Below, piece by piece: positions 19,820 to 36,601 of a DNA stretch of 64,000 bases. The translations under genes were made by a program, and so were the position numbers. Under the pieces are notes generated by a model, which was not told the origin of the DNA, made no database searches, and saw only the letters and a list, made by a program, of their open reading frames with translations. Each line of letters opens with the position of its first letter. Position 1 is the stretch's first letter. Origin of the DNA: an uncultured Planctomycetaceae bacterium (lineage in GTDB: Bacteria > Planctomycetota > Planctomycetia > Isosphaerales > Isosphaeraceae); contig CAWIAD010000002.1 in assembly GCA_963833985.1 (NCBI GenBank), positions 3,104,001-3,168,000 of the forward strand, in the 5' to 3' direction.

Positions 19820-20821
19820 TCAGAAGCCCAGCCAGGCGCCGATGCGGCGCAGGAATCCCTGCTTCTGAGGCTGCGCCGTCCGGTCGGCCATCACCTCGGC
19901 GGGATGGGTCCATGGTCCAGGAGCGCTTTCCTGGAACCGGATGAGACCGTCCTGGTGGGAAGGGGGCTCGGTTTTCCTCGCCAGCGATTGCGACTGGAGT
20001 GCCTCGAGGTGAGCCAGCAGCGTCCTGGCGGTCGTGCCGCGCGCGGCCAGAAGCTGGGAGAGTGGCCTGGGACGGGCGCCGCCGCGTCCCTGGGCCAGGT
20101 ACTCCAGCAACAGCGGCTTGCCGCGTTGCGGATCGGCGAGCATCATATGCACCCACGCCCAGGACTCCCGGTAGTCGCGCGGAGTCATGTCGTGGATGTC
20201 GGTGAGCGACTCCAGCCGGGCCAGGTCCGGTGCCCAGCCCTTCTTGAGGTCATCCGGTATCCTGGACAGATGCTCATCCTGAGCGTCGATCGTGTCGGTT
20301 CTGGTCTCGAAGTACTCGGCCAGCCCCTCGTCGAGCCAGAGCGGCAGATCGCCGTAGCAGCCGCGGACTAGGGCGTGCGTCGCCTCGTGCCGCAGGTCCT
20401 CCTCGAGCCGGTCGCTCAGGTAGGTGTAGACGACGCGCCGCGGCCCCTGGGCCAGAAAGAAGGCGCGCCGCGTGGGGAGTTCGGGAAAATAGAATTTGAG
20501 GAAGTGCGCGTACGCGTTGCGACTGTCCAGCACATAGATCTCGACGGGTTCGTCGTCGGTTCCGGAGCGGTAGTCGAGCCGGCTGCTCAGGTCCGTCTCC
20601 AGCGCGTGCAGGCAGCGGATCGACGGCGAATCGGCCGGCAGCGGCGTGCTGGAATAGACCAAAAAGGGGCCAGTACGGATCTGGTACCGAGTAGGGACCA
20701 GGGCCCGAGCTTCTCCATGCTCGCCCAGTGTGGCGCAGCCGGCCACGAGCACGAGCGGGACCAGTGCAACCCAGGGCCGGGATGTCTTGCCGTAAAGACG
20801 GATCCGGGTTGGTTCGCTCAT
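19820..20821 (-). CDS. DUF1570-type lipoprotein with HExxH metallopeptidase motif
   Basis: Lipobox LVAGC; LRHEATHAL; PLWLDEGLAEYFE. Confidence 0.75.
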   Translation of the reverse strand: MSEPTRIRLYGKTSRPWVALVPLVLVAGCATLGEHGEARALVPTRYQIRTGPFLVYSSTPLPADSPSIRCLHALETDLSSRLDYRSGTDDEPVEIYVLDSRNAYAHFLKFYFPELPTRRAFFLAQGPRRVVYTYLSDRLEEDLRHEATHALVRGCYGDLPLWLDEGLAEYFETRTDTIDAQDEHLSRIPDDLKKGWAPDLARLESLTDIHDMTPRDYRESWAWVHMMLADPQRGKPLLLEYLAQGRGGARPRPLSQLLAARGTTARTLLAHLEALQSQSLARKTEPPSHQDGLIRFQESAPGPWTHPAEVMADRTAQPQKQGFLRRIGAWLGF

Positions 20822-20844
20822 GCATGGGCTCCCGAGTTCCGGAT

Positions 20845-22633
20845 TCAGGAGAGGGGCCGTCCGCGCCGCTGGTTCCGCGCCCGCTTGGCCAGAACGGCAC
20901 GTTCCGTGCTCTTCCAGACGCTCTTCCAGTCGGAGAGCGGAGACAGGCCCCAGGGCAGGTAGGCGCGGAGGAAGCGGAGCGCTTCGGTGCGAGTTCGCCC
21001 CACGGCGCCCGCCAGGCTGACGCTCAGCCGAGCCAGGTTCTTGATGCGTCGTCGCTGCGGAACCGGATGCATCAGGCGGACGCCCACCAGGTCGATCAGG
21101 CTCAGGAAATCGCCGGAATCCAGGCGGTCCAGATGGACCAGGATATTGGTCGCTTTCAAGTCGCGGTGCGATAGCGAGCGCTCGTGGAGGTTGCGAATCA
21201 GGTGGGCCAGCGCCAGGTTGAGGTGGCGCACCCGGTGGCGGCGCGACGGCTCATCGAGCGCGGGGAGGAGCTTGCGCCACGTACTCCGCGAGCGTCGTGA
21301 CATGGTCGTGCTTGATCGTCGCCAGGTAGGTCTCGTGCGGCAGAAACCAGCAGAGTGGGCTGGACCCGAACGGCCGCTTGCGTGCCAGAAAGAGCAGGTT
21401 TCGCGGCGTGGAGATGCCTCGGCTGACCAGGTGCTGCCCGGCCTGCCAGGACCGCCAGGCGCACGACGGCCGCACCAGATTCAGCCAGGGATCGATCCAT
21501 TTCTTCCGGTTGAACCGCTTGTAGATCACGCGGGCGGGCCGGCCATCGACGCTCATGGTGACCTCGGCGACCGTCGAGGTGCGCGAGTTCTTGAGCACAA
21601 TCGTCCCCGGCGCGGAGAACGGCGCGTCCGGATCGGCCAGCAACAACTCCACCTCCGAGCCGTCCAGTTCACGTGCGGCGATGGACCAGGCATGCGGGCC
21701 CTGAAAAAGCTGAAAGTACTTGTTGCTGGAACAGCAACGGCGGCCCCAGCGCCGCCAGAGCCGCTCGGCCCAGGCGCGCGTCGAGCTTTCGATGCCCGCG
21801 GCGAACCGCCGCGGATCGGCGATCGTCTCCGTCCGGTTTTCCATGTAAGTCCGGAAGAACCGCAGGCAGTCGGACCGGCTGCACCGCAGCCAGAAATAAT
21901 GATGCAGCAGGGCCAGGTTCTGCTGCGCCGCGGTCCAGCTCATGCGCCCCTTCTTGTTGCTGCGCAGGGCATCAAGATCAATCATCGTCAGGACGGGCAT
22001 CTGCTCCACGTTCAGGTGAACCAGGACATTTCCGGGATGAAAATCGATGTGCGCCATGCCAGCGTTGTGCAGCCGCGCGGTGAGCACCGCCAGGGCCCTC
22101 GCCAGGCGATGGCGGATCTGCGAGCGCAGGGGCTCGGCGTAGCCGTCCAGCCGCTCCTCGATGAACTCGTCGAGCGCCACGGTTCCCGGGATCTCCCAGG
22201 TGACGAGATAGTTCTCGAAGAGGAACTTGCGGTGCCTTTGCTCGCCCAGCGCAATGGGATGGATGGTCGGGATGCCGATCGCCGCGAGCACTTCCGATCG
22301 TTTTCCCTCATTTCGTCCCTTGCCGCGACGCACCCACTGCCGGACCATGGCTCGGTAGTCGGGCACGAGATAGTGCTTGATGTAGATGGCGCCCTCGGGA
22401 AGGTCGACCCGGTAGACGACCCGGTGCGGGCCCGACTTGACGGTTCGCAACCGTCCCTCGTCGCGCCACTGGGCAAGCCGCAGCCCGTCCGGCCCAAGCA
22501 GCATCTCCTCCCAGGGCCCGCGCAGCCACCAGCCCACCGGGCCGGTCTGCACCCACCGCCAGTCGGGGGGCTGAAACATCCGTTGCAGGCCCGTCGTGGT
22601 CGTATCCTCGTCTGCCTTGACGTTGATCAGCAT
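20845..22633 (-). CDS. Tandem-domain lipopolysaccharide kinase (Kdo/WaaP/InaA family), frameshift near 21275
   Basis: First kinase domain with HIDFHPGNVL and IDLD. The second domain continues into ORF 20845..21303 with HRDLKATNIL and LIDL. Confidence 0.8.
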
Positions 22634-22675
22634 ATACGATGGCTACAGTAGCAGCCGAGTGCCGGCTTGGTCCTC

Positions 22676-23830
22676 TCAGGTGTCATCGCGTTCGCCTCCG
22701 GACCAGGCGCGAGACACGACACGGTGAAAGCCGCCAGAACGTCGGGAGCGCAGGAAGAACGGATCGGGAATCGCCCTCGAGGCCGCGCGGCCCAGTGGCG
22801 CTGGCTCCTGTGGAACCGCTGGCTCGACAGCGCTTACCGAGTCCACAAAGGCGCTTGCCCACGCCTCCGTGGAGTATCCGGCCTGCACCCGGCTCCGCGC
22901 CGTCTGCCCCATGGCTTGCCTCAATGCGGGATCGCCACAGAGCGTGCGTATCGCCTCAATCCAGTCATCAACCGCCCGCGGTAGGAAGCCCGTTTGGCCG
23001 GGTTCCACCAGCTCCACATGCATGCCGAAGGGATTGGCGACCACGGGCAGCCCGGCCGCCTGGTACTGGAGCACCTTGAGCCCGCACTTTCCCTGACTCC
23101 ACGAGTCCTCGGGCAGCCAGCTCACGCCGATCTGACCGGCCGCCAGGTCGCGCGCTTCCCACGCTTGCGACCAGGGCACAGGCACAATCGGCAGCGCTCC
23201 GAAATCGGGGAAGCGGTCACAAATCACTCGCAACCTCAAGCCCGGGATCTCCCGGCCCAGCCGGTCCCAGAGCGAGTGCTGCTGCTCGAGGCCCCGGAGC
23301 GTGCTCGAAGAGCCGATCCAGACCAGGTCGCACCCGCGCGACGCACCGCGCGGCCGCTCGGCCACGGCACGCTGCGGATAAAGCTCGGGGTCCACACAGG
23401 TCGGGATCATCCGGACGCGCGCCGCGGGCGCTCCGGACCGCAGCGCACAGTCGGCCAGGAAGTCATTCCCCGCAATCACCACGTCGGCGGCTTGCACGGT
23501 GGACTCGAACCGCTTCTGCCGGACCCGCGACTCAGTGCCCCGGCGGGCAAACGAGTCGCGGAACAGGACCGCGTCGTCGAAGTCGAACACCAGGTGCCGC
23601 GCGTGCTTGCGGAGGATCGCAAGCTGCCACCCCGGCAACAACCGGCGCTGCATGATCACCGCATCGTACGAGGAAACCGAGGAGAGCTGGGCAACGCGTG
23701 CAAGCAGCGAACGTTTCCACGGCCAGCAGTCGAGAGACCAGCCGGCGCGAGTGAGCGCCGGCGCGAATGCCCGGATACGATATCGGCAGCAGACGTGGTC
23801 CGGTGCGTCGACCAGGGCAAGAAGTCTCAT
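22676..23830 (-). CDS. Glycosyltransferase family 4 (GT-B)
   Basis: VFDFDDA, WIGS, GKCGLKVLQYQAAGLPVVA. Confidence 0.85.
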   Translation of the reverse strand: MRLLALVDAPDHVCCRYRIRAFAPALTRAGWSLDCWPWKRSLLARVAQLSSVSSYDAVIMQRRLLPGWQLAILRKHARHLVFDFDDAVLFRDSFARRGTESRVRQKRFESTVQAADVVIAGNDFLADCALRSGAPAARVRMIPTCVDPELYPQRAVAERPRGASRGCDLVWIGSSSTLRGLEQQHSLWDRLGREIPGLRLRVICDRFPDFGALPIVPVPWSQAWEARDLAAGQIGVSWLPEDSWSQGKCGLKVLQYQAAGLPVVANPFGMHVELVEPGQTGFLPRAVDDWIEAIRTLCGDPALRQAMGQTARSRVQAGYSTEAWASAFVDSVSAVEPAVPQEPAPLGRAASRAIPDPFFLRSRRSGGFHRVVSRAWSGGERDDT

Positions 23831-24145
23831 ACCGTCCTCCGTGACGGCGGGGCGGCCTGGAAGCTGCGGCGCAAAAAGCCCGATCCCTCACGCCGAAGCG
23901 ATCTTAGTCATCCCCTATAAAAAAGCAAGGCGGAATGAAGGATCCGGGCAAGGTAAGCTGCAAGGCTTGGCTCTGCCGCGGGGGGGGCCGGCGAGAGACG
24001 GGTAAATGGCAGCCAGCGACCAACTCGGATTGCTGAGGCGGGGCTTTCCTGGTAGGGATACGGCCGCTCGATGGTCGGAGCTCGCCCTGACGCTCCGAGC
24101 ATGCACGGAAGCTTGTCGGGCGACCTCACGGCGACGTTGTTGCAC

Positions 24146-26389
24146 ATGAAGAACTTCGTTCGGCTGGTACGCTTTGCCTGGCCACATCGCTACCGTTTCC
24201 TGATCTCCGTCGCGTGTGCCGCGATGGTGGCCCTCTTCTTCTTCACCGAGCTGGCGGCGGTGCTGCCGCTTCTGAACATCCTGTTCAAGAGTGAGAACCC
24301 CCAGCGCTGGGTTTCCAGCAAGATCGATGCGGTGGGCGAGCGCATCATTCTTCTTGATGCGCAGGCCGAGGAAGCTCGGAAGTTCCTCAGGGCCGGGGAG
24401 GCCGGAGATCTTCAGGCACCGGAGATCGCGCGTGAGTACCGTGAGCTGGACGACCAGGCTGCCGAGATGCGCAGCAAGCTCAATGAACACCAGCGCGCCG
24501 TGGACATGCCCGATCTGAAAGGGTTCTCGCCGCAGTTTGTCAAGAAAGAGCTGGCCGAGATCGAGGTCCTGCAAAAACGACTCGACATCGTCGACGGCCG
24601 CCTCGCCGAGCTGCGCCGGGGTAGTAACTGGCTCAAGGCCGGCGATCTGGCGTCGATCCGATATCGTCTGGTACAGCTCAAGCAAGAGACAGGAGACGAG
24701 CAAAAATGGCTGGGGAGGTATCAGCGGCTGAAGCCGCTGGTATTCCGCTATCTCCCCTCCGACGCGTTTCGCAACCTGCTGCTCCTGATCGGCCTGGTGA
24801 TCCTTGGCGTGGCCGTCAAGGGGTTCTTCATGTTCCTCCAGGAGGTGCTGGTCGCGGACGTCATGCAGCGCACGCAGTTTGACATCCGCAACCTGTTCTT
24901 CCGCCGCACGATCAACCTGGACCCGGGAAGCTTCTCCGACCAGGGGTCCGCCGAGCTGATGGCCCGGTTCACCAACGACATGGACTCCTTTGGCCAGGGC
25001 CTTGTCACGTTGCTCAGCAAGCTGATCCGCGAGCCGATGCGCGTGGTCTTTTGTCTGAGCGGAGCGCTTTATCTCAACTGGCGGCTCACCTGCCTGACGC
25101 TCGTGGTCGTTCCCATCTCCGCGCTCACCACCGTGCGCGTCGGCCGGATCATGAAGCGCGCGATGAGGCGGTCGCTGGAGAGCATGTCGTCGATCTACAA
25201 GATCCTCCAGGAAAGCTTCCAGGGGATCCGTGTGGTCAAGGCCTTCGCCATGGAGCGGGTCGAGCGCAGGCGGTTCTTCATCGAGACCAAGAATTTCTAC
25301 CGCAAGGCGATCCGGGTGGCGATGATCGACGCCATGTCGGACCCGGTCCTGGAGATGCTCACCCTGGTCACTGTGGCCATCGCGCTGCTCGCGGGATCGT
25401 ACCTCGTGCTCAAGAAGACCATCTTCCTGAGCGTCGGCCCTTTTCACATTCAGCTTGCCTCCCAGGTCATGGCCATCGAGGAACTCTTGACCCTGTACGC
25501 CGTGCTGGCCGGCGCCTCCGACCCGATCCGCAAGCTGTCCAACGTGCATTCCAAGATCCAGCGCGCGGCCGCGGCCGCCGACCGGATCTGTGCCATGATG
25601 GATCGCGAACCGAAGGTCGTGGAGCGTCCCGACGCGATCGAACTGCCAAAACCCCCCCGAATCCTCGAGTTCCAGGACGTTCATTTCAGCTACCCCGGCC
25701 GTCCGCCCGTGCTGCAAGGCATATCGCTGGTGGTTCACCACGGCGAAACGGTTGCCCTGGTTGGCCCCAACGGCTGCGGCAAGACCACGCTCATGAACCT
25801 GCTGCCCCGGTTCTGGGACGTCGATTCCGGGTCCATCACGATTGATGGACACAACATCCGTGACCTGCGTATCCGCAATTTCCGCCGCCAGATCGGCATC
25901 GTCCCGCAAGAGACGATCCTGTTCCAGGATACCATCGCCCACAACATTGCCTACGGGGACCCGACCGCCAGCCGCGACCGTATCATCGAGGCCGCCCAGC
26001 GCGCCTACGCGCACCAGTTCATCACGACCCTTCCCGACGGCTACGACACGCTCATCGGCGAGCGCGGGCACGGCCTCTCCGGAGGCCAGCGTCAGCGCAT
26101 CGCCCTGGCACGCGCCATGCTTCGCGACCCCTCGATCCTGATCCTCGACGAGGCCACCAGCGCTGTGGATATCCAGGACGAGGCCCTGATCCGCAAGGCG
26201 ATCGAGGAGTTCTCGAAGGGCCGCACCACGTTCTTGATCTCGCACAGCCTGGGCACGATCCAGTTCGCCGACCGGATCATCCTCATCGACGACGGCCGCA
26301 TCGTCGCCTCGGGCACCGATCACGAGCTGCGCCGCAACTCGCCCTTGTACCGCCGGCTCTACGAGATCCATTACCAGCGGGGAGCCTGA
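24146..26389 (+). CDS. ABC transporter, fused permease/ATPase (MsbA-like) with large periplasmic coiled-coil insert
   Basis: GPNGCGKT Walker A, LSGGQRQR signature, ILDEATS; TM helices; divergent from LPS-type kinase and GT genes. Confidence 0.88.
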   Translation: MKNFVRLVRFAWPHRYRFLISVACAAMVALFFFTELAAVLPLLNILFKSENPQRWVSSKIDAVGERIILLDAQAEEARKFLRAGEAGDLQAPEIAREYRELDDQAAEMRSKLNEHQRAVDMPDLKGFSPQFVKKELAEIEVLQKRLDIVDGRLAELRRGSNWLKAGDLASIRYRLVQLKQETGDEQKWLGRYQRLKPLVFRYLPSDAFRNLLLLIGLVILGVAVKGFFMFLQEVLVADVMQRTQFDIRNLFFRRTINLDPGSFSDQGSAELMARFTNDMDSFGQGLVTLLSKLIREPMRVVFCLSGALYLNWRLTCLTLVVVPISALTTVRVGRIMKRAMRRSLESMSSIYKILQESFQGIRVVKAFAMERVERRRFFIETKNFYRKAIRVAMIDAMSDPVLEMLTLVTVAIALLAGSYLVLKKTIFLSVGPFHIQLASQVMAIEELLTLYAVLAGASDPIRKLSNVHSKIQRAAAAADRICAMMDREPKVVERPDAIELPKPPRILEFQDVHFSYPGRPPVLQGISLVVHHGETVALVGPNGCGKTTLMNLLPRFWDVDSGSITIDGHNIRDLRIRNFRRQIGIVPQETILFQDTIAHNIAYGDPTASRDRIIEAAQRAYAHQFITTLPDGYDTLIGERGHGLSGGQRQRIALARAMLRDPSILILDEATSAVDIQDEALIRKAIEEFSKGRTTFLISHSLGTIQFADRIILIDDGRIVASGTDHELRRNSPLYRRLYEIHYQRGA

Positions 26390-26562
26390 GAAAGGGCGCG
26401 GCGCTCGCCAGTGGGCAATCGCGACGGTTGGTTCCACGAGATCGCACGGCCGCCGGTCGCGACAAAGTTCAGGAGCCGCGTCGAAGCAGTCAAGCCGCGC
26501 GCATTCATCGACCGATAGGTTCTCTGGTGACGGCTACGCTGCTCGCGCTTCACGATCATGAA

Positions 26563-26618
26563 GGGTGATGGAGTTCGCCCGACGTTGAACCGCTCCCCCG
26601 GGGGCTGATGACTCCTAC
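26563..26618 (+). promoter_or_regulatory. Fluoride riboswitch (crcB motif) aptamer
   Basis: GGGTGATGGAGTTCGCCC..TGAACCGC..GCTGATGACTCCTAC matches the crcB consensus: P1 GGGTGA/TCGCCC, pseudoknot GGAGT/ACTCC, AACCGC and GCTGATGAC. Confidence 0.93.
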
Positions 26619-26655
26619 TGAAAGGCCGCTGGCCTGACGGTAGGCGTTTTTTTTT
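26614..26655 (+). terminator. Intrinsic terminator forming the riboswitch expression platform
   Basis: CCTACTG (26614-26620) pairs with CGGTAGG (26638-26644) around an inner AGGCC/GGCCT stem, followed by a T9 tract (26647-26655). The 5' arm overlaps the aptamer pseudoknot strand. Confidence 0.85.
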
Positions 26656-26688
26656 GCGCCACGTGCCAGCGGTTCAAGGGGTGTTTTC

Positions 26689-27732
26689 TTGGACCGACTC
26701 CTGCACAGTCCCTGGCGCATGGGGATGCCGGCTCTGGCGGCCGTGCTGATCGTCCTGGGTGGCAGCGTCGTTGCCCAGGAAGGCCCTGCGCCCGATCCCG
26801 CGCAGCCGGGGGAGGCCAGACGCCTGTCCTTCTGGGAAGTTGCAGGCGAGTCGCTCGCCGGCGAGGCCTCCGTCGACCTCTGGACTCCGCTCTCCTGGCG
26901 CGGTCTCTTCACCGAAGGCTGGAACACTCCGTTTGTCTTCTCACCTCCCAGTGACTCAGGCGCTCTACGGCAGGAGTGGATCAACGCAGCCAACGGAGTA
27001 TTCTATCGCCAGTGGGTCCTCGATTACGCCTACCACAACCACGTTGGATCACACGGCGATCAACACATCGGCTCCTGGTTCATCTTCGCGCCGCTCAGCC
27101 GCCGCCTGGAAATCCTCTTCACCGTGCCGTTCGTCGATTACAGCCAGGCGGGCGCCGGCAGGAGCCCGAGTACACCGGGCAGCGGTCGCTCCGGCTCTGT
27201 AAATGGGGGAGGAGTCGGACGCTCCGGTAACGATCAGGGCGACATCGGCGATCTCAGCATCACGCCCCAGGTGCTGGTCCACGAGACGCGCAACACATCA
27301 ATCATGTCCATCATGACCATCCGTACGCCCACCGGAAGCCTCGCGCAGGACAATGGCCATACCTCGCTTGGACCGCAGATCCAGTTCTGGCAAGGCCTGC
27401 CCCGCCGCTGGGTGGTCCGGGGCGGTTGCGGCCCCACGATCCCGCTTGGCGATACGGGCCTGCGAACGACTTTCGACAGCAACTTGACCCTGGGCAAGTT
27501 TCTCACCATCGACGAATACCGCTACTTCAAGGAGTTCACGGTCTACCTCGCCGCCAACGCCTCCAGCTCGGTCGATCATCGCGGGCCGAACGCGACCACG
27601 CTCACCCTGCTGCCCGGGCTGCGGTTCCGGGTCACGCCGAATTACTGGCTTCTCTATGGGGTCGAGACCTCCCTGGTAGGCCCGGGCCATGAGGATTACG
27701 GCATGTATTTCCGCCTCGTGCGACGGTTTTGA
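26689..27732 (+). CDS. Putative outer-membrane beta-barrel (COG4313/MetA-pathway 'transporter'-like), fluoride-riboswitch controlled
   Basis: Signal peptide (ATG 26719 is an alternative start); amphipathic beta strands; VPF..GDIGDL..TPTG motifs; C-terminal Phe (YFRLVRRF). Confidence 0.6.
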   Translation: MDRLLHSPWRMGMPALAAVLIVLGGSVVAQEGPAPDPAQPGEARRLSFWEVAGESLAGEASVDLWTPLSWRGLFTEGWNTPFVFSPPSDSGALRQEWINAANGVFYRQWVLDYAYHNHVGSHGDQHIGSWFIFAPLSRRLEILFTVPFVDYSQAGAGRSPSTPGSGRSGSVNGGGVGRSGNDQGDIGDLSITPQVLVHETRNTSIMSIMTIRTPTGSLAQDNGHTSLGPQIQFWQGLPRRWVVRGGCGPTIPLGDTGLRTTFDSNLTLGKFLTIDEYRYFKEFTVYLAANASSSVDHRGPNATTLTLLPGLRFRVTPNYWLLYGVETSLVGPGHEDYGMYFRLVRRF

Positions 27733-27949
27733 GCCATCCTGGGGCCGCTTGCTTTCGGCGTGCTCACCGGGCGCCCGCAGCCGTCTGGCGCGGGACGATC
27801 CTGGTAACGCAGCGTCCCGTTGTCGATCTCAAGACGTGCTCGCCGCGCACAAAGCCTGAAGGGCAGGCAGGCAGGGAAGAGGAAAGCATTTCCCGGGTCT
27901 GCCAGCACTCTCCAGGCAAGGTGCCCGGCGCGATTGCGGATCCTGGTCA

Positions 27950-29239
27950 TCAGAGCGCGGCAACGCCTTGCGGACGAACCAGATTCGGGACGGGCAAGAC
28001 CGTTGGCGAGGACGGTACCTCCATCAACGTGCCGTCCGCACCCACGCTGAAGACGTGCAAGGCGTTGGCCTCGGGCGTGGACATGGCGGAGAACTGCTGG
28101 GTGACGACGTGCAGGAAGCTCTCCGTCGGGTCCAGAGCGAACTGGTATCCGCCGGGGTTGCTTCCCGGCGCCACATCAAGATCAATCTTCTGAATCTCGA
28201 CGGGCTGGGACGGGTCGGTCGCGATGTCAAACACCGAGATGCTGGGGTCACCGGTATTGCTGGCGTAAAGTCGCGTGCCTGCCTTGTTCACCAGCAGCCA
28301 GCAGACGCCGTTACCCGAATCGGCAACCGAGCGCAGAAAGTGCAGGCCGCCGATCGGAGTGTACCGGTACACTCCCACCCGGTTGATCGTGACGAAGCCG
28401 ACGTAGAGGAAAGGGCGATGCGGGTGCACCGCCAGGCCCAGCGGCAAGGGCGGCGCGCCCGAGGCCGCGAACTCCATGGGCGGTAACGCCAGGGCGGCTT
28501 GCGGCGCGAGGCGGCCCTTTTCCCCGATCGAGAGGGTACGCAGCAAGCCGCCCAGAAAGTCCGCCCCGAAGAGGAGCCGGCCCGACGGCGAGATGAGCGC
28601 CTGCGAGGGGTTGGATCCCAGATCGTCATAGAGCGTCGAGTTGGGAACCGGACGGAGCTGACCCTTCGGGGACACCTTGAACGAGGTGTAGTTTGGCAGT
28701 GTCTTGCCGGGATGATTCGGGTCATCGTCCTTGTTCACGACGCACAGAATGTCTCCCGCGAGCCCCAGGCTCACGGGGTTCGACCCGCCAGAGGAAAACG
28801 GCGAGCCTGGAACCGGGGTGAGAGATCCGTCGCCCTGGATCGAGAACACGGCGATCGTGTCGGAGCCTCCGTTGACGGCAAACAAGAGCGTGTGCGAGGG
28901 GTTGACGATGATCTCCTGATCCGAGTCGTATGGTCCCAGGTCGAACGTCGGCGTCACGCCCAACCCGGCGGTCGAAAATGGCGAGCCCGGCAGCGGGGAC
29001 AGGCTTCCATCGGCCCCTCTCGTGTATGCCAGGATGGCATTGCCGCCGGGATCGTTGCTCTCCACATAGACGAGGTTCCTTGGTCCCTGAGCCTGGGCCG
29101 TGGCCAACTGGCCAGACGTAACCAGCAGCGCAACAGCAAGCGACGCTAGCAAACACGAGCTGCGCAAGCGAACCACGACCGATGAAACCGGTTGCGGTCG
29201 TTCTGTGACCCGGGCGCTTCTCCTGAAGTTGAACAGCAC
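27950..29239 (-). CDS. Secreted lactonase-family beta-propeller protein
   Basis: Signal peptide; repeated PGSPFS/LFAVNGGSDTIAVF blades. Start uncertain. Confidence 0.8.
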   Translation of the reverse strand: MLFNFRRSARVTERPQPVSSVVVRLRSSCLLASLAVALLVTSGQLATAQAQGPRNLVYVESNDPGGNAILAYTRGADGSLSPLPGSPFSTAGLGVTPTFDLGPYDSDQEIIVNPSHTLLFAVNGGSDTIAVFSIQGDGSLTPVPGSPFSSGGSNPVSLGLAGDILCVVNKDDDPNHPGKTLPNYTSFKVSPKGQLRPVPNSTLYDDLGSNPSQALISPSGRLLFGADFLGGLLRTLSIGEKGRLAPQAALALPPMEFAASGAPPLPLGLAVHPHRPFLYVGFVTINRVGVYRYTPIGGLHFLRSVADSGNGVCWLLVNKAGTRLYASNTGDPSISVFDIATDPSQPVEIQKIDLDVAPGSNPGGYQFALDPTESFLHVVTQQFSAMSTPEANALHVFSVGADGTLMEVPSSPTVLPVPNLVRPQGVAAL

Positions 29240-29436
29240 GGTCGATTCTCCCTCGATTGGAATGATGCGAGATTCCTGGCGAGGCCGGCCCACCAGATGC
29301 CTGGGCGCGGTCAGCGAGCCCGACCACGGGTGGACGCGATTGGTCCGCCGGTGGATGACAGATCAGGGCCGCCGGGAATGAGTCGACCGGCGTGCGGATT
29401 CCTGACAGCGTTCGTGTCGAAATGGCGGCGAAAGGC

Positions 29437-36527: not shown

Positions 36528-36601
36528 CGAGGATGATGGGGCTCGAACCCACAACCTCCGGCGTGACAGGCCGGTGCTCTAACCAATTGAGCTACATCCC
36601 C
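36528..36601 (-). tRNA. tRNA-Asp (GTC)
   Basis: GGGGATG-TA-GCTC..GAGC-A-CCGGC-CTGTCAC-GCCGG-AGGTT-GTGGG-TTCGAGC-CCCAT-CATCCTC-G cloverleaf; CCA not encoded. Confidence 0.97.

Follow-up and report, generated by a model that had tools for sequence, protein, structure and literature searches.

A fluoride riboswitch upstream of a predicted outer-membrane beta-barrel gene in an Isosphaeraceae planctomycete

Fluoride switches and the switch of this locus

Fluoride riboswitches of the crcB motif (Rfam RF01734) control genes for Fluc/CrcB, CLC-F, Na+/H+ antiporter, enolase, pyrophosphatase, formate hydrogen lyase, and Usp proteins, and fluoride defense is usually described as a matter of the inner membrane, with the outer membrane taken as freely permeable. 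The locus described here lies in a 64,000-nucleotide stretch of contig CAWIAD010000002.1 from an uncultured Planctomycetaceae bacterium of the family Isosphaeraceae (the window), where such a switch precedes a gene for a predicted outer-membrane beta-barrel. Other switches of the Isosphaeraceae head the same genes as the known RF01734 regulons, and the window's switch resembles these in its canonical aptamer and overlapping terminator but differs in its target, the outer-membrane barrel, and in following a sigma-28-like instead of a TTGAC-type promoter. The literature searched yielded no description of a porin under the control of a fluoride riboswitch, and such a pairing may be listed, though unstudied, in gene tables. 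Term searches gave zero occurrences of "porin" or "outer membrane" in a 2024 review (PMC11139923) and no porin named under a fluoride riboswitch in PMC5533749 and PMC13104614. The switch thus belongs to a known class, while its target class, an outer-membrane barrel, appears to be new.

The Rfam covariance model matched positions 26555-26624 (+) with 51.4 bits against a gathering score of 34 (E 2.4e-11). This above-threshold score, from the kind of model search that the original prediction had proposed, confirmed its canonical crcB aptamer at 26563-26618 (+), including the same start of P1 (26563) and end of the 3' pseudoknot strand (26618). Alignment to the RF01734 consensus identified P1, P2, the pseudoknot (26570-26574 with 26611-26615), and conserved core nucleotides. 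Among 23 barrel-linked switches, 98.6% of the cells in the aptamer helices were paired, the pseudoknot and core were invariant, and P2 displayed compensatory, two-sided changes. The strand 26611-26618 is shared by the pseudoknot and an intrinsic terminator (26611-26655, +), which encloses an inner hairpin between this strand and its partner 26639-26647 and ends in a run of nine T (26647-26655), in agreement with the overlap and T tail first proposed. The terminator was identified by a terminator scan, its fold (-21.5 kcal/mol; z -3.87) was equaled in stability by 0/200 shuffles, and its stem was 98.6% paired in the 23 sequences with little covariation (one two-sided change only). The switch is located in the 5' leader, with the start codon 34 nucleotides past the U tract, and an aptamer with an overlapping terminator in an ON arrangement is the layout described for the crcB motif in PMC2864571. 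From its sequence, the RNA is predicted to be an ON-type switch that acts on transcription in response to fluoride and whose expression platform and aptamer fold are mutually exclusive.

The open reading frame under the switch (26689-27732, +) encodes 347 residues from a TTG start and ends in Phe, while the protein record starts instead at ATG 26719 and has 337 residues. The TTG start is favored by a purine-rich site 7 nucleotides upstream (likely ribosome-binding site 26676-26681; 26676-26691, +, with the start codon) and by relatives, which have an equivalent purine-rich site and a TTG or similar start codon in the corresponding position. The next gene (27950-29293, -; Pfam Lactonase) is convergent, which leaves the barrel as the sole gene under the switch, as had been read from the window.

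The barrel and its recurrence under fluoride switches

Among the closest known channels are Pput2725 (PDB 4RL8) and FapF (PDB 5O65). An AlphaFold2 model of the window's protein (pLDDT, the predicted local distance difference test score, 83.5; 12 main strands) gave the same 12-stranded barrel type as Pput2725, spanning residues 98-337 of the 337-residue record (27010-27729, +), preceded by a predicted N-terminal plug at residues 76-97 (26944-27009, +) recognized from alignments and conservation. Within the plug Arg84, Trp87, and Arg97 were invariant, the structural alignments to FapF and Pput2725 began at model residues 77-88, and model residue 88 stood opposite chain residue 2 of 4RL8; the segment would sit inside the lumen as in both structures. 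A plugged 12-stranded fold and an outer-membrane location are predicted, in line with the beta-barrel features first noted. The terminal Phe noted at the outset is present but is not the usual ending of homologs, as the last residue was Trp in 58, Tyr in 10, and Phe in 8 of the 77 proteins counted (best 76 homologs). The gene had also been proposed to encode no known fluoride exporter, and a Fluc or CLC-F identity was rejected on the grounds that no CRCB or Voltage_CLC Pfam match was found, the model is a beta-barrel, and crcB lies elsewhere in the genome.

The window's barrel is 15% identical to Pput2725 and differs from the Pput2725/TcpY/SphA channels (COG4313/PF13557) by its predicted polar, arginine-containing lumen, its riboswitch control, and the lack of aromatic-catabolism neighbors; no catabolic neighbors were identified in the close loci and none recurred among 26 unswitched loci. 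D178 and P204-T205-G206 were invariant in 34 homologs and match the Asp...Pro-Thr-Gly cluster of PMC4493636 by pattern, not by residue-level superposition. The protein itself had no Pfam match at E up to 0.05, including PF13557, which matched 9/34 homologs (one close orthologue with 30.2 bits against a cut-off of 22), and by its sequence it is best termed COG4313-like, not a COG4313/PF13557 member on its own score. A rough count by strand alternation suggested a polar, slightly net positive lumen for the window's clade (6.8 basic and 4.6 acidic residues). FapF is 16% identical, and its amyloid secretion operon was ruled out by the solitary gene of the window and the variable neighbors in relatives. 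Many close orthologues (L008, L009, L010, and L013) have an extended N-terminus, absent from the window's protein, that includes a lipobox-like Cys and a linker rich in Pro, Ala, and Ser.

The pairing was conserved in close relatives. Among 50 related loci from the GTDB collection (nine close, 51-63% identity; 41 distant) and one metagenome locus at 59%, RF01734 matched upstream of all nine close loci and the metagenome locus, giving with the window 11/11 copies having a 5' end, compared to 0/43 distant loci (the 41 GTDB loci and two paralogues of the window's genome). This survey, which had been suggested as a check, supports an ON switch controlling a COG4313-like outer-membrane barrel as a conserved trait and not a one-off. 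A twelfth close copy, in G020, is a 3' fragment without a switch behind an insertion sequence; one close locus has an insertion sequence in the terminator U tract, a second has its barrel gene split by a transposase, and frameshifts, possibly due to assembly errors, occur in several copies. In five orthologues third codon positions were 41-45% identical versus 74-81% at second positions, which fits purifying selection on the barrel. A second fluoride switch elsewhere in the window's genome heads crcB and DUF190, so the window's switch is not the leftover of a lost fluc gene, as had been considered; the conserved pairing likewise speaks against such a remnant. Both elements share a neighborhood in some relatives, with the order switch, dynamin-like gene, switch, barrel, Usp, crcB, and DUF190 in L013 and switch, barrel, switch, cytidylate-kinase-like fragment, crcB, and DUF190 in L009. 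The second switch of the window's genome (G000:C2:1807231-1809130; L155) is followed by a 99-residue dynamin-like N-terminal fragment, which looks truncated compared to the switched dynamin-like proteins of relatives, and then by crcB and tandem DUF190 genes.

In a census of 121 Isosphaeraceae genomes, with the best 39 candidates per genome scored against the RF01734 cut-off, 78 switches exceeded it in 44 genomes. Outer-membrane barrels were the commonest first gene under fluoride switches across the Isosphaeraceae, headed by 26/78 switches at one per genome (26/44 switch-bearing genomes) and ahead of dynamin-like (14), crcB (9), and cytidylate-kinase-like (9) genes, some of these labels being assigned by eye. 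The switched barrels comprised ten of the window's clade, four of a second COG4313-like clade (31-34% identical to the window's barrel), one of a third clade, and 11 OprP-like proteins, and none of the 44 genomes contained two of them. One genus had an OprP-like barrel under the switch in G051, G265, G266, and G267 and a COG4313-like barrel in G264, and the presence of both types under the same switch type fits interchangeable pores. A quick IQ-TREE run of 65 barrel sequences, from which two duplicates, five rows that were too short, and any row containing a stop had been dropped, placed the window's clade (100% support in the Shimodaira-Hasegawa-like approximate likelihood-ratio test) apart from the second clade with at least three changes of switch label. 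The barrel switch was the only one over the cut-off in 16/26 genomes, many of them incomplete, and lay within 10 kb of crcB in 5/26. A second scan of 20 barrel loci without a switch, with hits accepted up to E 0.5, gave no RNA match, and outside the family neither barrel type was matched at any of the 20 switch loci at class level or the 23 at phylum level.

The census also displayed other switched genes. Dynamin-like GTPases stood under 14/78 switches (e.g., L119, L124, L141, L222, and L227), and tandem cytidylate-kinase-like genes (PF13189) headed nine (e.g., L124, L128, L130, L098, and L215), usually preceding Na/H exchanger, Usp, or crcB genes; PF13189 is not among the fluoride genes in the accessible part of PMC11139923. 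Switches at L124, L136, L215, L226, and L132 headed PEP-utilizer (PtsI-like), enolase-metallophosphoesterase-HIT, NUDIX-enolase, and SulP genes, and several family switches clustered in islands of 13-19 kb. Switches before HlyD, TolC-like (OEP), and AcrB-like genes at L120 (G081), L134, L144, L145, and L236 could possibly represent a tripartite efflux branch of the fluoride response.

OprP-like porins are channels for hydrophilic anions. The stand-in barrels of 11 genomes belong to the OprP/OprO superfamily (PF07396; PDB 2O4V and 4RJW), which is unrelated to the window's barrel: PF07396 exceeded its cut-off in 11/11 switched loci, two as frameshifted pieces, and a switched protein matched 2o4v with E 4.8e-08. 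The top 12 matches to a switched copy comprised all 11 switched genes plus a further copy that lies in one of the fluoride islands, with the remaining OprP-like proteins scoring far below. The stand-ins differ from OprP/OprO by the fluoride switch and by Trp at the position of OprP Arg133, the central arginine of the phosphate channel. According to one pairwise alignment (the same E 4.8e-08), this position was Trp in 9/9 switched copies aligned and Arg in 5/5 paralogues outside the clade, a replacement that argues against plain phosphate uptake. A second OprP-like copy in the fluoride island (L140:7726-9300 and L271; G027) has a sigma-28-like promoter, no switch, and the same Arg-to-Trp change, while at L256 (G250) and L275 (G294) unswitched COG4313-like and OprP-like barrel genes are adjacent.

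The barrel-linked switches also share a putative promoter. In the window a predicted sigma-28 (FliA/WhiG)-like promoter lies at 26490-26518 (+), with TCAAG at 26490-26494 and a CCGAT core at 26512-26516. The pattern AA-N15-18-CCGAT, which resembles the E. coli FliA promoters in Table 2 of PMC4183435, was found upstream of 24/27 barrel-linked switches versus 0/52 others, and a TTGAC-type element preceded 3/27 versus 42/52. The spacer is one base longer than in E. coli FliA promoters in 24/25 relatives and two longer in the window, whose weaker copy (17-nucleotide spacer) fell outside the top 40 matrix hits of its own genome. This genome encodes FliA/WhiG (270 bits), and no flagellin was found in it (genome 96% complete). 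The FliA/WhiG gene adjoins an FlhF-like GTPase gene (G000:C2:5220779-5221447; L248), and the motif precedes several apparently exported proteins in the genome. It was also identified at 7/20 unswitched barrel loci and at 11/41 distant loci versus a background of 64/866 windows and therefore seems tied to envelope genes generally. A FastTree phylogeny of 79 switches with their expression platforms, given without support values, united 26/27 barrel-linked switches in one group with the barrel families interleaved. This grouping regardless of barrel family indicates that the promoter-switch cassette has moved.

Proposed fluoride exit and competing explanations

Fluc protects cells by undoing the weak-acid trapping of F-, a relief that a passive channel provides according to PMC4144673. 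At the window's locus, a rise in cytoplasmic fluoride would turn on the single barrel gene, the fluoride-bound aptamer sequestering the 5' arm of the terminator and allowing read-through from the sigma-28-like promoter. The barrel may then form a narrow anion pore through which fluoride exported by Fluc would leave the periplasm, lowering re-entry of hydrogen fluoride (HF) by undoing weak-acid trapping in the periplasm as Fluc does in the cytoplasm. Such trapping would arise in a periplasm that is not as acid as its surroundings or that receives a fluoride load from Fluc, and the scheme assumes a poorly permeable outer membrane, the pore relieving the periplasm as Fluc relieves the cytoplasm. 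That unrelated barrels have come under one switch more than once indicates that the function selected for is that of a small-solute pore, and we consider venting of Fluc-exported periplasmic fluoride by the switch-induced barrel to stand at about even chances.

Several points weigh against fluoride venting. A passive outer-membrane pore cannot bring periplasmic F- under the outside level, and a steady-state benefit requires a periplasm less acid than the medium or export exceeding HF leak, the other occasion for a benefit being recovery after exposure. The channel of Pput2725, the closest characterized uptake protein, is almost shut, and its authors considered passage of hydrophilic solutes through it improbable (PMC4493636). 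The lumen of the second switched COG4313-like clade was net negative in a rough count (5.0 basic and 6.5 acidic residues), and the four invariant arginines are common to unswitched paralogues too. Eighteen of the 44 switch-bearing genomes have no switched barrel, only 13/118 family matches to the COG4313-like profile are switched and 105/118 are not behind a switch, and the counts given here for switches, barrels, and promoters, drawn from kin genomes, are not independent. Some close copies are broken by insertion sequences (L050, L055, and G020). Finally, crcB was present in 25/26 genomes with a switched barrel and in 99/121 overall, so that its co-occurrence with the barrel is near the base rate.

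The main rival to fluoride venting, though somewhat unlikely, is that the induced barrel takes in a solute (phosphate, pyrophosphate, bicarbonate, sulfate, or a divalent cation) that would protect the cell by offsetting acidification and the inhibition of phosphoryl-transfer enzymes. PMC11139923 connects fluoride resistance with importers of phosphate and transporters of ions, the other switched barrel family is related to the phosphate porins OprP/OprO, and family switches also head enolase, metallophosphoesterase, NUDIX, PEP-utilizer, SulP, and Na/H exchanger genes; at L232 the switched barrel is followed by a dual-specificity phosphatase-like gene. The Trp of all nine switched OprP-like copies, where five unswitched paralogues keep Arg, speaks against such import, as does the finding that no phosphate-transport gene recurs beside switched barrels. 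The kinship of the stand-ins also bears on an improbable alternative in which the barrel belongs to a fluoride response of the envelope, for instance as a FapF-like exit for polypeptides, as an adhesion factor, or as a tighter pore in place of leakier ones, and conducts no relevant ion, since OprP-like proteins point to a small-solute pore and not a secretion channel; neither a secretion substrate nor a fap-like operon was identified beside the gene in close loci.

The grouping of 26/27 barrel-linked switches across barrel families and the copies broken by insertion sequences would also be expected if a mobile promoter-switch cassette had landed before barrels without benefit against fluoride, or now answered another signal. 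We regard this as quite improbable because the aptamer core and pseudoknot are invariant, the terminator is kept, orthologues at 61-66% identity are under purifying selection, and in that tree group the cassette heads barrels only and never a random gene. The least probable explanation is import of an organofluorine substrate with the released fluoride as inducer, as the original prediction had also raised. According to PMC4493636, characterized COG4313 channels are associated with hydrophobic substrates, trichlorophenol among them, and a single match to haloacid dehalogenase type II exceeded the cut-off in the genome. The matching gene is more than 1 Mb away from the barrel, switched barrels have no recurring neighbor of dehalogenase or catabolic type, and OprP-like porins pass hydrophilic anions, so that this substrate proposal was not upheld.

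If the barrel does vent fluoride, a wider model can be put forward more tentatively, and we hold it to be doubtful as a whole. Isosphaeraceae-type planctomycetes would have a two-membrane fluoride exit consisting of Fluc in the inner membrane and an induced, fluoride-selective outer-membrane pore, recruited at least three times from unrelated barrels via a mobile sigma-28-promoter-riboswitch cassette. Losing the central arginine would have shifted the preference of the OprP-like version from phosphate to fluoride.

Gene surroundings and meaning for the Isosphaeraceae

A signal peptide of about 29 residues (26689-26775, +) was predicted by eye at the start of the barrel protein. At the gene end, a weak terminator-like hairpin (27724-27757, +) from a pattern scan may be a chance match, with two terminators found in the region versus 1.1 expected. 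The upstream neighbor of the switch is an ATP-binding cassette (ABC) transporter gene on the same strand, from which read-through could also feed the switch. It belongs to a probable lipopolysaccharide cluster at 19820-26389 encoding an MsbA-like ABC transporter, a GT4 glycosyltransferase, a Kdo/WaaP-type kinase, and a DUF1570-like protein. A transfer RNA gene lies further downstream at 36528-36601 (-; Rfam 72.3 bits).

At this locus a riboswitch is layered on a putative alternative-sigma promoter, in a genome in which no flagellin was found. Should the pore pass fluoride, it would define a new fluoride channel class and offer a component for strains built to degrade organofluorines, and if the two-membrane exit holds, these barrels would be the first outer-membrane fluoride channels. 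If the barrel instead imports a protective ion, it would point to which ion that is, and on either reading two large groups of orphan porins gain a stimulus that can be put to the test. The Isosphaeraceae are likely to add an outer-membrane step to fluoride defense.
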